A DNA stretch of 64,000 nucleotides from a virus (lineage: Duplodnaviria; Caudoviricetes), in the IMG/VR virus record IMGVR_UViG_3300033068_000963, positions 32,175 to 96,174 of that record, one strand, 5' to 3'. This document shows, piece by piece, positions 27,888-58,323 of the stretch. The position numbers were made by a program, and so were the translations under genes. The notes under the pieces are model-generated. The model saw only the letters and a program-made list of their open reading frames with translations, had not been told where the DNA came from and did no database searches. Within the stretch, counting starts at the first letter, position 1. Each line of letters begins with the position of its first letter.

Positions 27888-28634
27888 AACGTCACTCAAA
27901 TGACGATTGACGACGCGGAGCACTACACCCCTGCGGAGCGCGAGGCGATCATCGCCAGCTATCCGGCACATGAGCGCGAGGCCCGCATCAAGGGCATCCC
28001 GTCGATGGGCTCGGGTCGTGTGTTCCCGATCTCTGAGGAAGAGATCACCTGTGACCCGTTCCAGTGGCCTGCGTTCTGGCCGCAGATCGTCGGCATCGAC
28101 TTCGGCTGGGATCACCCGTTCGCGGCGATGCGCCTGGTCTGGGATCGGGACGGCGACATCGTCTACGTCGTCAACGAGTACGCTCAGCGCGAGAGCACGC
28201 CGGTCATTCACGCTGCTGCGGTCAAGCCCTGGGGGTCGTGGATCCCGGTAGCCTGGCCGCACGACGGTTTGCAACACGACAAGGGATCGGGCGAGAGCCT
28301 TTCCCACCAGTACCGAGCCCAAGGCCTCAACCTGCTGTCCGAGAAAGCCACCTTCCGAGATGGCGGGAACGGCGTTGAGGCTGGCGTCATGGACATGCTG
28401 GACCGGATGCAGACGGGGCGCTGGAAAGTGTTCTCCACCTGCGGCGGCTGGCTTCAAGAGTTTCGCCTCTATCACCGGATAGACGGCCTGATCGTCAAAG
28501 AGCGCGACGACCGCATCAGCGCCTCCCGCTACGGGCTGATGATGCTTCGCTACGCCAAGACAGAGCCGCGAGAATACGACGATGACGAGCGGTACAGCGG
28601 CAACGACGGGCGCAGCGAACATGCGGGGTACTGA
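27879..28634 (+). CDS. terL: Terminase large subunit, C-terminal nuclease half
   Basis: MTIDDAEHYT...YPAHEREAR..GIP.MGSGRVF, GIDFGWDHP and DD.ISASRY motifs; own AGGA RBS. Confidence 0.88.
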   Translation: MSRNVTQMTIDDAEHYTPAEREAIIASYPAHEREARIKGIPSMGSGRVFPISEEEITCDPFQWPAFWPQIVGIDFGWDHPFAAMRLVWDRDGDIVYVVNEYAQRESTPVIHAAAVKPWGSWIPVAWPHDGLQHDKGSGESLSHQYRAQGLNLLSEKATFRDGGNGVEAGVMDMLDRMQTGRWKVFSTCGGWLQEFRLYHRIDGLIVKERDDRISASRYGLMMLRYAKTEPREYDDDERYSGNDGRSEHAGY

Positions 28635-31650: not shown

Positions 31651-32453
31651 GCGAAGCCCTGGAAGCCCCCGAAGTCCAGCACGACGACGCCCCGCAATCC
31701 GAACCCGCCGACGTTCGCGCCCGCCGCATGGGCTGGACGGACAAGGAGGAGTTCAAAGGCGACCCCGCCAAGTGGGTGGACGCCGAGACTTTCGTCAAGC
31801 GCGGGGAGGAAATCCTTCCCATCGTGCAACACCAGAACAAGGTTCTTGAAGCCGCCCTCCGCAAAGCCGAGGGCGAGATCAAGGACTTCCGCAAGACCCT
31901 GACGGAGTACAAGAACTTCGCCGACAAGGCCGAGCAGCGCAGCTACGAGCGCGCCCTGCGTGACCTCGAAACCCAACAGGCCGAAGCTGTGGCCGCCGGC
32001 GACGTTCAGGCCGTCCGCGAGATCACCAAGGACATCGCGGCCCTCGACAAGGAGGTCCGGTCGGAGGCTCCCAACGACGGGCGCCCAAAGCTCACGCCGG
32101 ATTACCAAGAGGCTGTCGATACCTTCAAGGCCGACAACCCCTGGTTCGACACTGACCGCGCCATGTCGGCTTGGGCCGTCGCCAAGGACGGCGAGCTGGC
32201 AGAGGCTGGGATCGAGGAAAAGGCCCGGCTGAAACAGATCCACCGGCTCGTCCGCGAGGAGTTCCCCGGCAAGTTCAAGAACCCCAACCGCGATGCGCCT
32301 GGCGCTGTGGAAGGGGGCCGAATGGGCGCCGCAAGGGGAGGGGCCAAGACGTGGGCCGATCTCCCCGCCGACGCCAAGGCCCAGGCCGAGCGCTTCATCA
32401 AGAAGATCCCCGGCTTCACCCGTGAAAAGTTCCTGAAGGATTACGACTGGTGA
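31647..32453 (+). CDS. Scaffolding protein
   Basis: ARRMGW..KEEFKGDP.KWVDAETFV.RG, NPWF and T..DLP.DAK...E..LKDY motifs. Confidence 0.75.
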   Translation: MSEALEAPEVQHDDAPQSEPADVRARRMGWTDKEEFKGDPAKWVDAETFVKRGEEILPIVQHQNKVLEAALRKAEGEIKDFRKTLTEYKNFADKAEQRSYERALRDLETQQAEAVAAGDVQAVREITKDIAALDKEVRSEAPNDGRPKLTPDYQEAVDTFKADNPWFDTDRAMSAWAVAKDGELAEAGIEEKARLKQIHRLVREEFPGKFKNPNRDAPGAVEGGRMGAARGGAKTWADLPADAKAQAERFIKKIPGFTREKFLKDYDW

Positions 32454-48277: not shown

Positions 48278-48468
48278 TGGATCTCAAGCACGTCGAGGAC
48301 CTCGCAGACCTCAAGGCCAGGATGAAGGCGATTGAGGACGACAGGCTTCCCGAGAGGATCGGCGCCCTTGAGCGGTTTCAGTCGGTCATGTCCACCGGGA
48401 TCTTCCTGATCGGGGTTCTGATCGGGGCTTTGCGGGATCAGATCATGAACCTGTTTCATATCAAATGA
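48274..48468 (+). CDS. Small coiled-coil + TM protein (holin-like)
   Basis: RIGALE followed by a C-terminal TM segment. Confidence 0.55.
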   Translation: MMDLKHVEDLADLKARMKAIEDDRLPERIGALERFQSVMSTGIFLIGVLIGALRDQIMNLFHIK

Positions 48469-48800
48469 TCGGCTCAATCTGGCGGGCAATGCTGTCTGCG
48501 GCCCCGGTGAAAATCTGGGCGCAGATCGGCGCGGCTATGGCCTGGACGGTCGTGCTGGTGTCGTTCGAATTGGCGATCTGGCTTGGCCCGTGGGATACCT
48601 CTCGCCAAGCCCAGCAAATCGACTGGCTCGGGTACGGCGTCGTCATTGCGGGCGCCCTGGCTCTGGTATCACTGGCTGCGATCACCGGCCTCAACATCAA
48701 CTTCAAGGGCGGGAAGGATGGGGTCTCAGGCTCCATTGATCAGGATGAACCCGCTGCTGTCGTCACCACCACCACGACAACGGAGGTGGGGAAGGGTTAG
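48465..48800 (+). CDS. Holin candidate (2 TM)
   Basis: Two TM segments; upstream of the endolysin. Confidence 0.55.
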   Translation: MIGSIWRAMLSAAPVKIWAQIGAAMAWTVVLVSFELAIWLGPWDTSRQAQQIDWLGYGVVIAGALALVSLAAITGLNINFKGGKDGVSGSIDQDEPAAVVTTTTTTEVGKG

Positions 48801-49042
48801 GCGGGACTGCGGTTTATCCAGCGGCGAAGCCATCGAGGCGGCGGGGCGAACATCGCATAGGAGATGGCGCACACCGCCGTGAAGAACCCGCCACCCAAAC
48901 CCGCTGCGCGGAGCGGGTCGCCGTAGACGAACCAGTACGCGCCCCCAACGCCAAGAGCCGATCCGCCGACGTAGAACGCCCCTACGCCCCAACCGAGGAT
49001 GTCGAGCCTTGAAAGTCGTCTGTTGGCCGCGCCCTCTTCCAT
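48797..49042 (-). CDS. Small two-TM membrane protein downstream of the tRNA-like RNA
   Basis: GGAGG RBS; two Gly-rich hydrophobic segments; basic C-terminus. Confidence 0.6.
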   Translation of the reverse strand: MEEGAANRRLSRLDILGWGVGAFYVGGSALGVGGAYWFVYGDPLRAAGLGGGFFTAVCAISYAMFAPPPRWLRRWINRSPA

Positions 49043-49062
49043 CTCTCGTCCTCCAATAGGGT

Positions 49063-49256
49063 GTGAAGCGGGCCGGGCTTGATACCGGCTGAGGTTGTTT
49101 GAGCTGAGGCGGCAAGCTGGATCGGACCCCGGAGGGGAATTGGTGCCACCTGCGGGACGCTACCCCCGCCACCTCCGCCTTACGAAGGCGGCGCTCTCGC
49201 GTTCTCGTTCCCATTCCAGATACAGGGCCGCATGTCCATCCACGCCGCCGCTTCAC
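49063..49256 (-). ncRNA. tRNA-like shell (acceptor, D and T arms, no anticodon arm) enclosing a permuted tRNA
   Basis: GTGAAGCGG (49256-49248) pairs with CCGCTTCAC (49071-49063); D arm GCGT-GGATGGAC-ATGC; T arm GCCGG-TATCAAGC-CCGGC. Confidence 0.7.
49101..49196 (-). tRNA. Circularly permuted tRNA-Thr(CGT)-like gene, broken in the D loop
   Basis: 3' part 49196-49141: GAGC-G-CCGCC-TT(CGT)AA-GGCGG-AGGTG-GCGGG-GGTAGCGT-CCCGC-AGGTGGC-A-CCA; 5' part 49113-49101: GCCGCCT-CA-GCTC, downstream of the CCA. Confidence 0.7.
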
Positions 49257-49263
49257 CCTTTGA

Positions 49264-49292
49264 TCATCCCCCAAATCACCTGTAGAATCAAG
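49264..49292 (-). promoter_or_regulatory. Candidate promoter for the tRNA-like RNA
   Basis: Minus strand TTGATT-17-GATGAT, ~7 nt before the outer stem. Confidence 0.4.
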
Positions 49293-49309
49293 CATCAAGG
49301 GGCGACCTG

Positions 49310-49747
49310 ATGAAGCTCTCACCCAACTTCACCTTGGCGGAAATGACGGCCACCCGAACGGGCCTGCCGAACGTCGCCCCGCCCGCCATCATCACCAGCC
49401 TAACCGCCCTCTGCGTCAACGTGCTGGAGCCGATACGAGCCCACTTCGGAAAGCCCGTTCAGGTCAACAGCGGCTATCGCTCCCCTGCCGTAAACCGAGC
49501 CGTTGGATCATCCCCCACCAGCCAGCACGCCAAGGGCGAAGCGGCAGACATCGAAATCCCCGGCGTTCCCAATACCGAGCTTGCCCGGTGGATTTCTAAG
49601 AACCTGCGCTTTGACCAATTGATCGCGGAGGAAGTCAGGGCCAACGATCCGAGCGCGGGCTGGGTTCACGTCTCTTTCGGCCCCCGGATGCGTGGTCAAG
49701 TCCTGACCATGAAGGGCGGGAAGTATACCGTGGGGTTGGCGGCGTGA
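49310..49747 (+). CDS. Endolysin, M15A-type peptidase
   Basis: LSPNFTLAEM, VNSGYRSP.VN.AVG...TSQH.KGEAAD and WVHVS motifs. Confidence 0.9.
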   Translation: MKLSPNFTLAEMTATRTGLPNVAPPAIITSLTALCVNVLEPIRAHFGKPVQVNSGYRSPAVNRAVGSSPTSQHAKGEAADIEIPGVPNTELARWISKNLRFDQLIAEEVRANDPSAGWVHVSFGPRMRGQVLTMKGGKYTVGLAA

Positions 49748-52542: not shown

Positions 52543-53787
52543 ATGGCGCGCCGCCAGGCCAACCGATTGACCCACCGCGAGGTGCAGACGATCAAGGCGT
52601 CAGGCCGCCACGCGGACGGGATGGGGCTCTATCTCCACGTCGATCCGGCGACCCAGCAAGAGGGCCAACCCGAGAAGGTCGGGGCCAAGCGATGGGTGTT
52701 CGTCTTCCAATGGGAGGGCAAGCGCCGCGAGATGGGCCTGGGGTCTGTCGATAACGTCGAGCTGAAGGAAGCCCGCGCCCTACGCGACGCGGCGCGCAAG
52801 CTGGTGGCCGACCGCGTTGACCCGGTTGAGGAGCGGCGACAGAGCCGCATCGTCCCGGCTGCGGTCCCGACCTTCGGCGACTTCGCCCGCGAGATCGTGG
52901 CGGGCCTGACCCTGAAATCCGACAAGCACCGGATGCAATGGGAGAAGACCCTCACCGAATATCAGCCCAACCTTCAGGCCAAGCCGGTGGACCAGATCAC
53001 CACCCAGGACGTGCTAACCGCCCTGCGCCCGCACTGGACCACCATACATGAGACGGCGGAACGCATCAGGGGCCGCACAGAGCGGGTCCTAGACGCCGCC
53101 AGGGCCGCCGGACATATCTCCGGGCCTTGGGAGAACCCCGCCCGCTGGAAGGGCCACCTGGCGCTGCTGTTGCCCCGCCCCGACGTGAAGGTGAAGCATC
53201 ACGCCGCGCTGCCCTACGCGCAGCTTCCGGCCTTCATGGCGGCGTTGCGGGAGAGGCCGTCGATCAGCGCGCGGGCGTTGGAGTTCCTGATCCTCACCGT
53301 GGCGCGGACGGAAGAGATACGGTTCGCGGTGCGAGGTGAGGTCGAGGGCGATGTCTGGACCGTGCCGGCGGGGCGGATGAAGGCCGGGCGGGAACATCGG
53401 GTTCCGCTGACCCAGGCCGCGCTCGACGTGTTGGCGAAGGTCTGGCCGCCGGAAGACATGGCGCCGCGAAGTGAATGGATCTTCCCGAGCCGCGACCTGA
53501 TCAAGCCGCTCTCCAACATGGCGATGGACAAGATACTGCGTCTGGACGGGCTAGAGGTGACGGTTCACGGCTTTAGGAGCACGTTCAAAGACTGGGCGGA
53601 AGACTGCACCAACTTCTCGAATGGAACGATTGAAGCGGCCTTGGCTCACCAAGTCGGTGACGAGACGGAGCGGGCCTATCGCCGGGGCGACGCGCTGTTG
53701 AAGCGGCGCAAGCTGATGGAGGCGTGGGCGGGGTTCTGCGGTGGCCGGACAGGGAAGGTCATTCCTATGTCGCGGGGCGTAGGCTAG
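52543..53787 (+). CDS. int: Tyrosine integrase (P4-like, arm-binding N-terminal domain)
   Basis: GRHADG.GLYL, G.RREMGLG, R(TVART), K(RMK), HGFR, LAH and AY.R motifs. Confidence 0.95.
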   Translation: MARRQANRLTHREVQTIKASGRHADGMGLYLHVDPATQQEGQPEKVGAKRWVFVFQWEGKRREMGLGSVDNVELKEARALRDAARKLVADRVDPVEERRQSRIVPAAVPTFGDFAREIVAGLTLKSDKHRMQWEKTLTEYQPNLQAKPVDQITTQDVLTALRPHWTTIHETAERIRGRTERVLDAARAAGHISGPWENPARWKGHLALLLPRPDVKVKHHAALPYAQLPAFMAALRERPSISARALEFLILTVARTEEIRFAVRGEVEGDVWTVPAGRMKAGREHRVPLTQAALDVLAKVWPPEDMAPRSEWIFPSRDLIKPLSNMAMDKILRLDGLEVTVHGFRSTFKDWAEDCTNFSNGTIEAALAHQVGDETERAYRRGDALLKRRKLMEAWAGFCGGRTGKVIPMSRGVG

Positions 53788-57660: not shown

Positions 57661-58323
57661 TTACTCTTGCTCCAGGGGAGGGGTGAGAAGGGCTCGGGCA
57701 GCGCGGGTCGTTCTGTCCAGCCTCTCAAGCCCGAACATCGCGGTGATTGAGCGGTCGTCTGGTAGGTGCATCCGTTCAAACCGATCCCGCTCTACTCGGG
57801 CCCCAATCTCCACGAGGGACAGGATCGCCGCGCTCTCCCCCTCTAGCTCCCCCGCCCTTGCCTGTAGGGTTTCGACCCGTGCGGTGAGATCGGCGTCAGG
57901 AGCTTGCATGGCGGCGGTGATCCCGGCGATGGCATTGCCGCGCAGGTAGTCGATATGGCGCTCGTCGGTGACGCGCTCGGCGTCTCGGAACCCTGTCCGA
58001 TAGGTCGTCTCCGCAGCCGCAGCCATGAGGGCGCAGACGAACTCGGCGGACTTCCCGAACCTGATGGCGCATTCGTAATGGCGCGGCCCCCAGGTGTGGC
58101 AGTCAGTGCCATGGGTGCCGATGCGGTTATCTCGCTCATTCTGGTATCGGACGGCGACGCGAAGGCGCTGATTGTCCGCCTGTAGGGCGGTGAGGGCGGA
58201 GAGGAGGGCGGTCAGGTCGGCGGAAAGCTCGTCGGCGTCCTGCTTCGTCATGTCGGGCGCGAACTCGACAATCTGGGCGGCGTAGGCCTTAACCCTATCT
58301 GCGGCTTGTTCTGTAGGGGTCAT
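57661..58323 (-). CDS. Composite hypothetical early protein
   Basis: Start MTPTEQAA; [15 protein letters not shown] module. Confidence 0.55.

Follow-up and report, generated by a model that had tools for sequence, protein, structure and literature searches.

A circularly permuted tRNA-Thr(CGT) sequence in the predicted leader of an antisense cassette between phage lysis genes

What is a transfer RNA (tRNA) sequence, with its 3′ part placed ahead of its 5′ part, doing on the antisense strand among the lysis genes of a phage? The question is raised by positions 49063–49256, read on the minus strand, of a window of 64,000 nucleotides (nt) that covers positions 32,175–96,174 of the viral record IMGVR_UViG_3300033068_000963; below, 'the window' also stands for the phage under study. 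A preliminary description had taken this stretch for a permuted tRNA-Thr(CGT) nested in an outer tRNA-like shell. We find that it does derive from tRNA-Thr(CGT) in circularly permuted order, and that it belongs to a family of cassettes whose leaders carry pieces of different tRNAs. With moderate confidence, we take the Thr element for a tRNA relic without decoding function, lying in the leader of a mobile antisense moron cassette, morons being independently transcribed accessory cassettes in the late operons of temperate phages.

The leader is 194 nt long and runs from 49256 to 49063 on the minus strand. Its parts are as follows, with lengths of stems in base pairs (bp).

49256–49248, minus strand: 5′ strand of the outer 9-bp stem, GTGAAGCGG, which forms an exact inverted repeat and pairs with CCGCTTCAC
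49245–49230, minus strand: D-like hairpin GCGT-GGATGGAC-ATGC of the 5′ frame, by direct reading
49197–49141, minus strand: tRNA-Thr(CGT) positions 21–73 plus encoded CCA, from a truncated RF00005 match and alignment to Phenylobacterium tRNA-Thr(cgt) positions 20–76
49140–49114, minus strand: 27-nt spacer from the CCA end to G1, holding CCCC-TCC-GGGG, by direct reading
49113–49083, minus strand: tRNA-Thr(CGT) positions 1–21 with a 10-nt insert, from the match to Phenylobacterium tRNA-Thr(cgt)
49063–49089, minus strand: 3′ frame, with hairpin GCCGG-TATCAAGC-CCGGC (49089–49072) abutting the outer 3′ strand CCGCTTCAC (49071–49063), kept across cassettes

Direct reading and fold comparison located on this strand every element that the preliminary description had listed. 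The D-like hairpin is followed by a 32-nt linker, after which the 3′ piece runs through the D-stem 3′ strand, the anticodon arm, a variable loop of 5 nt, the T stem, the acceptor strand AGGTGGC, A73 and CCA. The anticodon arm reads CCGCC-TTCGTAA-GGCGG, with CGT at 49184–49182 in a 7-nt loop that has U33, and the T stem GCGGG/CCCGC closes a non-canonical 8-nt loop, GGTAGCGT (49164–49157). The 5′ piece opens with GCCGCCT-CA-GCTC-A, corresponding to G1–A14 (49113–49100) and identical at 13 of 14 positions to positions 1–14 of Phenylobacterium tRNA-Thr(cgt); a 10-nt insert, AACAACCTCA (49099–49090), flanked on both sides by the 7-nt direct repeat CCTCAGC, then splits the D arm. The T loop had been described as non-canonical, as it is, but the D loop had been thought to be replaced by the outer module, and there the description needs correction: GCCGGTA (49089–49083) is the D loop, tRNA-Thr positions 15–21. 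Since CTCAGCCGGTA is an exact 11-nt match to positions 11–21 of real tRNA-Thr(CGT), the alignment places the permutation break between A21 and G22, with the whole tRNA laid out as 3′ part, spacer and 5′ part.

The origin of the element was examined against the 29 tRNAs of one Phenylobacterium genome. The best match to its 3′ half and the best match to its 5′ half are both tRNA-Thr(cgt), in permuted order, and the chain of 3′ half followed by 5′ half from the same tRNA scores 50, a value reached by none of 150 shuffles. Within the 96-kilobase (kb) record, the tile holding the element ranks first of 1920 for tRNA-likeness (36, against a mean of 20.3 and a standard deviation of 2.35), and all tRNA matches are to the sense strand. 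When 185,579 species genomes were scanned with a pattern, at least 120 real tRNA-Thr(CGT) genes came up that have an identical acceptor strand, D stem and anticodon loop, most of them alphaproteobacterial, including genes from Caulobacteraceae, Phenylobacterium and Sphingomonas. The 3′ piece is identical to these real genes at 41 of 53 positions, the mismatches lying mostly in the T loop. As in permuted tRNA genes, the 3′ half lies upstream of the 5′ half on one strand and the acceptor strands are complementary. These comparisons establish, at the level of sequence, both the derivation from tRNA-Thr(CGT) and the circular permutation that the preliminary description had put forward.

Some other likenesses were noted along the way. 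The second most tRNA-like tile of the record lies in the terminase region, where window 28174–28198 holds 25 nt resembling the 5′ part of tRNA-Val(gac), positions 2–26 with one gap. An exact 15-nt match, GGCGCATTCGTAATG, to the anticodon arm of Phenylobacterium tRNA-Thr(CGT) occurs at window 58066–58080, within a minus-strand open reading frame (ORF) about 4.3 kb beyond the integrase gene; it may be a chance match or a core-like site. Compared contigs and loci carry L-numbers here, and the 27-nt spacer was compared with the leader upstream of the tRNA-Thr gene of L084: the likeness is not significant (10% of shuffles reach the same), and the idea that the spacer is a native tRNA leader was rejected on that ground. 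Resemblances of the frame to initiator tRNA or to a tRNA-Val anticodon loop were likewise set aside as not significant. A search of viral_contigs for the tandem or permuted Thr junction pattern gave just one chance match, inside a coding region.

Does the permuted sequence still look like a tRNA gene to programs that search for one? ARAGORN called no tRNA or transfer-messenger RNA (tmRNA) gene, and Rfam gave no match at gathering score in the window or the whole record and none in E-value mode over 48700–49500; that standard scanners would miss the element had been foreseen. Taken alone, the 3′ piece matches RF00005, with 5′ truncation, at 19.4 bits and so falls short of the gathering score, 29. 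It had also been suggested that the pieces be re-ordered in silico (49113–49100 followed by 49197–49141), a Thr-CGT score then supporting the model, and no such support came: ARAGORN made no tRNA call at any threshold tried. Re-orderings to which the D loop had been added, whether the 10-nt insert was kept or dropped, likewise went uncalled even with thresholds lowered to ps80/85. A control sequence, into which a canonical T loop had been swapped and from which the 10-nt insert had been dropped, was called as Thr(CGT). A canonical tRNA has a contiguous cloverleaf that scores above threshold, and its 7-nt T loop (T54-Psi55-C56-R57-A58) forms the elbow with an intact D arm; the element has no such cloverleaf, an 8-nt T loop and a D arm split by an insert. 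A relaxed ARAGORN call of 'tRNA-Thr(tgt)' at 48829–48906 was discarded as background, there being 105 such calls in the window.

Folding of the leader does not favour the nested arrangement either. The nested fold has an energy of −63.8 kcal/mol, the best structure compatible with it −79.8 kcal/mol and the minimum free energy (MFE) structure −87.8 kcal/mol, so that the nested fold lies 8–24 kcal/mol above the MFE, with ensemble probabilities of at most 1% for the inner helices; the proposed tRNA within a tRNA is in this respect not supported. The outer stem is predicted with an ensemble probability of at least 0.96 for seven of its nine pairs and the 3′ hairpin with at least 0.92, and the D-like hairpin of the window reaches just 0.02. 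In the MFE structure, the 5′ frame pairs with the spacer and the acceptor 5′ strand.

The setting of the leader is an insert among the lysis genes. Its position, antisense and inside the lysis cassette as the preliminary description had it, is confirmed by the M15 endolysin and an Rz1-like LysC. The neighbouring genes are a holin-like membrane protein, the endolysin and Rz/Rz1-type spanins, and the cassette has the following parts besides the leader.

48465–48800, plus strand: holin-like membrane protein
48801–49309, minus strand: antisense cassette, 509 nt long, that separates the holin-like stop codon from the endolysin ATG (49310)
49042–48797, minus strand: ORF81, of 81 amino acids with two hydrophobic stretches, from the ORF list; its stop overlaps that of the holin-like gene
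49054–49049, minus strand: ribosome-binding site (RBS) GGAGGA, upstream of ORF81
49257–49304, both strands: promoter box of about 48 nt, with hexamers on both strands
49310–49747, plus strand: M15 endolysin

In the nearest relative, L002, whose endolysin is 71% identical, the stop codon of the holin-like gene and the endolysin ATG overlap, with no insert between them; the two genes also abut directly in L254–L259, L261, L262 and L293–L297. Because L002 and many other relatives show this direct abutment, we take 48801–49309 to be a 509-nt insert. On the minus strand, the box contains TTGATT (49291–49286), 17 nt and GATGAT (49268–49263), from which a transcript would start near 49256. On the plus strand it contains a sigma-70-like TTGATC-17-TAGAAT (49260–49288) that faces the endolysin and matches at 9 of 12 positions in a promoter scan; as this site stands directly before the endolysin, the insert may supply its own promoter for the downstream lysis genes. 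ORF81 has a G+C content at third codon positions of 0.74, similar to that of neighbouring genes, and no homologue or family was found for it; no clear intrinsic terminator was found in the cassette. Since homologues of the holin-like protein come from Phenylobacterium, the host is probably a member of the Caulobacteraceae.

The preliminary description had also raised the prospect that the outer shell might carry other tRNA cargo, and this is borne out. Sister cassettes are present on five other contigs, L205, L207, L212/L215, L251 and L252, that is, four further distinct cassettes besides that of L205. The comparison therefore involves six cassettes in total, with L212 and L215 near-identical to each other and the Thr cargo unique to the window. 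The promoter box, 3′ frame and RBS are common to all five other contigs and the 5′ frame is kept in four of the five, around cargo that comes from Arg, Pro and Ala tRNAs and is permuted in two cases. The cargoes are as follows, each in the sense orientation.

Window: tRNA-Thr(CGT) in permuted order, with damage to the T loop and D arm
L205: Arg-like tRNA in normal order, found by Rfam at 36.7 bits, E 3.5e-6
L251: T arm and acceptor 3′ strand of tRNA-Arg(tct), 6 nt, then its acceptor 5′ strand and D-stem strand; permuted
L212: 3′ piece of tRNA-Pro(tgg), then its D arm; permuted, lacking acceptor strands
L252: positions 34–66 of tRNA-Ala(cgc), the 3′ half only, with a mutated T loop
L207: no recognisable tRNA piece

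Cargo derived from tRNA, always sense and from different tRNAs, is thus found in five of the six cassettes. The damage differs from one cassette to the next, and no single tRNA feature is common to the family. In the L205 tRNA the anticodon loop is deviant, the anticodon stem includes a G.A pair, and mismatches occur at 1–72 and in the T stem; the L251 cargo lacks the anticodon arm and CCA and forms six of seven acceptor pairs. In Rfam E-value mode over the window region, L212, L215, L251, L252, L260 and L207 no tRNA was found, L205 alone being positive.

The frame around the cargo recurs. The 3′ frame element GCCCGGCCCGCTTCACACC is exact in all six cassettes, and the box is about 90% identical in the window, L205 and L251 and recognisable in L212/L215 and L252. 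The outer stem pairs in the MFE structures of the window, L205, L207, L212 and L252; in L251, GTGAAGCGG is absent and the 5′ end pairs with the Arg 5′ piece in place of the outer stem. Among the six cassettes, the stem is invariant in sequence wherever present. The 3′ hairpin is kept in five of the six with a loop of varying sequence, L251 lacking its 5′ strand. Two hairpin changes keep pairing, one G-C to U-G in the 3′ hairpin of L205 and one G-U to G-C, the latter in the D-like hairpin of L207 (GCGT...ACGC); L205 has a different hairpin here, GGCGCG/CGCGCC. Leaders range from roughly 120 to 240 nt. In four cassettes the spacing from the frame to the RBS and ATG is constant, with GTG at the ATG position in L252, and the small ORFs (81, 58, 62, about 55, 70 and about 25 amino acids) are unrelated among cassettes, including to ORF81. 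Between L212 and L215, a block of 481 nt that covers box, leader and ORF agrees at 98% identity, the leaders being identical and the flanks unrelated, and L207 has its cassette elsewhere in the genome, accompanied by 40 nt from the end of the holin-like gene; from that block in unrelated flanks and from the L207 placement we conclude that the cassette moves as a unit. The 3′ frame and box patterns were also scanned in viral_contigs. The 3′ frame search in metagenome_contigs gave two true matches out of 19, no further cassette was found in 401 alphaproteobacterial genomes or in GenBank phages, and 103 endolysin-neighbour loci held none beyond that of L205.

Membership of this family, the mosaic of tRNA pieces and the absence of a tRNA call are matters of observation. 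The bidirectional promoter box, the 5′ and 3′ frames and the RBS with its start codon are most likely the working parts, because those are what the family conserves, and together they resemble a frame from which interchangeable small ORFs are expressed. In the scheme that we favour, the cassette consists of promoter box, structured leader, RBS and variable small ORF in a temperate phage of a Caulobacteraceae-like host, and minus-strand transcription would begin from the box. The frame ends GTGAAGCGG and CCGCTTCAC, predicted to pair in five of the six cassettes, would close the leader from its first transcribed bases to just before the RBS, and this 5′-terminal stem could serve as a leader or stability element for expression of ORF81. 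The interior would be exchangeable, recombination between tRNA-like sequences having brought in pieces from different tRNA genes. Like described morons, the cassette is a short opposite-strand insert between late genes that is missing from close relatives, occurs in varied contexts and carries its own predicted, conserved promoter-like box, RBS and orphan ORF; unlike them, it has a conserved long leader of tRNA derivation with a variable interior, and no clear intrinsic terminator.

Several observations weigh against a mere relic. Four stems are intact, with all 21 Thr base pairs, including seven of seven in the acceptor stem and four of four in the D stem; CCA is encoded; and G1-C72, C2-G71, G35 and U36, which are Thr identity elements, are all present. 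Where the stems differ from those of real tRNA-Thr(CGT) genes, pairing is preserved (A31-U39 to C-G, U52-A62 to G-C and G4-C69 to G-U). Intact stems, pairing-preserving differences, CCA and identity bases fit either recent capture or continued selection. Permuted order with both halves from the same tRNA is seen in three cassettes with three tRNAs (window, L251 and L212), a recurrence that is poorly explained by unrelated accidents and hints at a directed process or a function. The ORF of L252 has at most 25 codons, and the payload of that cassette may be the RNA itself. On the minus strand, the promoter agrees with the consensus at 8 of 12 positions by manual reading, below the scan threshold, and folding z-scores for the leaders are weak, from −0.9 to −2.1.

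How should these points be balanced against other accounts of the element? Chance resemblance in G+C-rich DNA might be suggested by the number of spurious relaxed ARAGORN calls in the window and by its folding z-score of just −1.55, but it is refuted for practical purposes by the top rank of the tile, by the same-tRNA chain that no shuffle equalled and by the Rfam-grade tRNA of L205 at the same place. The model of the preliminary description, in which processing of a nested permuted tRNA-Thr(CGT) gives a two-piece RNA with a chargeable Thr end that acts as a nuclease-resistant supplement or as a regulator of ribosome or synthetase, can point to the full set of stems, the 7-nt anticodon loop with U33 and CGT, the first two acceptor pairs, the encoded ACCA, the ARAGORN call once the T loop is made canonical and the insert dropped, and the precedent of two-piece tmRNA in the likely host class and in phages (PMC9004378). 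We nevertheless consider it very improbable. An 8-nt loop lacking the T-loop motif and a split D arm would be unlikely to form an elbow, no tRNA is called, the inner helices are almost absent from the ensemble, and the 5′ piece would stay joined to the ORF81 messenger RNA (mRNA). RNase P, EF-Tu and the ribosome rely on the tRNA elbow. A chargeable two-piece tRNA is, moreover, unsupported because the family does not conserve the features that such a tRNA would need: sister cassettes have no conserved chargeable ends, the inner acceptor stem is incomplete in L251 and missing in L212, L251 has no outer 5′ strand, and L205 combines its deviant anticodon loop with three mismatched or non-standard pairs. 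There is somewhat more to be said for a non-decoding tRNA mimic, a possibility that we regard as unlikely but substantial, in which the permuted body (acceptor and T stem, closed by the spacer loop) is recognised by factors that process or bind tRNA. RNase P might cut before G1 and trimming might stop at CCA, giving a two-piece leader whose downstream piece is an ORF81 mRNA with a paired, protected 5′ end; or the RNA might be a decoy or sponge for a tRNA-directed host enzyme, with different cassettes offering different tRNA bodies. Intact stems, CCA and Thr identity bases, the recurrence of sense cargo and of permuted order, the near absence of an ORF from L252 and the processing of permuted two-piece tmRNA precursors by the likely Caulobacteraceae hosts (PMC3985003; PMC9004378) would all suit such a mimic. 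Against this, T loops, anticodon loops, acceptor pairing and CCA are each lost in some cassette, so that no part of the tRNA body is kept family-wide, L207 has no recognisable tRNA piece and the inner fold is thermodynamically disfavoured. The most far-reaching form of the idea is a phage RNA family in which permuted Thr, Arg and Pro tRNA bodies are set in a common frame by a directed process and are processed by host RNase P and 3′ trimming, the tmRNA machinery, into two-piece mimics that guard mRNA 5′ ends or act as decoys; we hold this to be unlikely.

Alternatively, the tRNA fragments could be scars of the att type, produced when a phage integrated, excised aberrantly or recombined with host tRNA genes, with no role at the RNA level and with the frame conserved only as promoter and RBS. 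We think this plausible but unlikely. It accords with several features of the attP sites of tyrosine integrases that target tRNA genes: a 3′ tRNA fragment ending in CCA, a temperate phage, and relatives that integrate at tRNA-Thr. In a Phenylobacterium sp. contig (JBBKVV010000074.1, L293), a related prophage ends at an intact tRNA-Thr(GGT) gene (L293:5026–5100, minus strand) about 0.9 kb past its lysis cassette, with the host genes for DUF2948 and histidinol dehydrogenase beyond; since the prophage ends there, this phage group integrates at tRNA-Thr genes, and the gene is oriented like the fragments in the window. Several of the alphaproteobacterial tRNA-Thr(CGT) genes among L084–L203 break off directly behind the anticodon loop and give way to unrelated DNA, presumably at junctions with integrated elements, and such truncated genes would be in keeping with a scar. 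So would the tyrosine integrase gene 3.3 kb away (52543–53787) and the ssrA fragments in prophages that have been ascribed to imprecise excision (PMC9004378). However, the junctions share no core of 6–8 nt, the overlap being A21 alone; 5′ tRNA parts, normally missing from attP sites, are present; the site is not repeated over 16 nt or more elsewhere in the record; the integrase gene is not adjacent; and no sampled host tRNA has an identical 3′ part. The 21- and 26-mers of the anticodon arm have no exact match in viral_contigs or in the 185,579 species genomes, the phage's true host not having been identified. The end of the integrated relative, furthermore, lies downstream of the whole lysis cassette and not between holin and endolysin.

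Against this background, how does the relic compare with tRNA genes known to be broken, permuted or decayed? Permuted tRNA genes are known from red and green algae and from the archaeon Thermofilum pendens (PMC3978253; PMC3218864), with junctions mostly at 37/38 (PMC3978253). The phage element resembles them in having the 3′ part upstream of the 5′ part on the same strand, a short intervening sequence and complementary acceptor strands. It differs in having its junction at 21/22 in the D arm, a destroyed T loop, a place within an mRNA leader and no tRNA call. The algal and archaeal genes yield normal tRNAs by way of a bulge-helix-bulge motif, the splicing endonuclease and a circular intermediate; to our knowledge, bacteria have no such endonuclease, bulge-helix-bulge route or circular intermediate. 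Such genes have been proposed to arise when a tandem duplication loses its outer parts or when a circularised precursor is copied, and the phage element could have come about in these ways too. A reverse-transcriptase origin of the permuted piece was rejected, the 96-kb record containing no reverse-transcriptase gene. In the literature that we searched, permuted tRNA genes are confined to algae and one archaeal lineage and permuted tmRNA to a few bacterial lineages and some phages; no report of permuted tRNA genes in bacteria or phages was found.

Two-piece tmRNA is closer in taxonomy, being known from Alphaproteobacteria and from 53 phage genes (PMC9004378); for Alphaproteobacteria it is credited to Keiler et al. 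(2000), as cited in PMC3978253. It has in common with the phage element the likely host class and an acceptor 3′ strand that, with its CCA, precedes the acceptor 5′ strand, and in both a single precursor could be cut by RNase P and 3′ trimming into two paired pieces. Unlike two-piece tmRNA, the phage element has no tag reading frame and no pseudoknots, has C-G rather than G3-U70 at pair 3-70 and includes an anticodon arm; neither ARAGORN nor the Rfam tmRNA models gave a tmRNA match. Degraded tRNA genes are also known in phages, an example being the internally degraded tRNA-Lys pseudogene of some APSE phages (PMC7313666). As in those cases, the window holds tRNA sequence of a temperate phage that no longer scores, and its sister L205 still has a near-intact tRNA at the same place; unlike them, it combines permuted order with conserved frames whose ends mostly pair and with different tRNAs in one frame.

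The significance of the element depends on which account is correct. Even as a mere relic, it marks the holin/endolysin junction of these phages as an insertion hotspot served by a conserved frame of promoter, leader and RBS, and shows that tRNA scanners overlook relics of this type. If the recurring pattern reflects a process, it would point to a route in bacteria, by recombination or copying, through which the 3′ end of a tRNA becomes joined to a 5′ end, and if the RNA is processed it would represent a new kind of tRNA mimic attached to an mRNA. A processed family of permuted tRNAs would give bacteria or phages their first known gene of the permuted tRNA type.

The surroundings of the cassette offer a few further observations. 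At the holin/endolysin junction, L253 (740–1400) carries a minus-strand ORF of 126 amino acids that differs from the cassette of the window, and L002 (3448–3673) has an ORF of 69 amino acids between endolysin and Rz. The holin/endolysin and endolysin/Rz junctions of the relatives are insertion hotspots, the former on the strength of the different insert in L253. The 96-kb record as a whole contains two tyrosine integrase genes (record 786–2162 and 84717–85961) and two sets each of structural and lysis genes, and looks like a tandem pair of phage genomes or a chimeric assembly. The second phage of the record is in vegetative order, with its lysis genes followed by small ORFs and then int.

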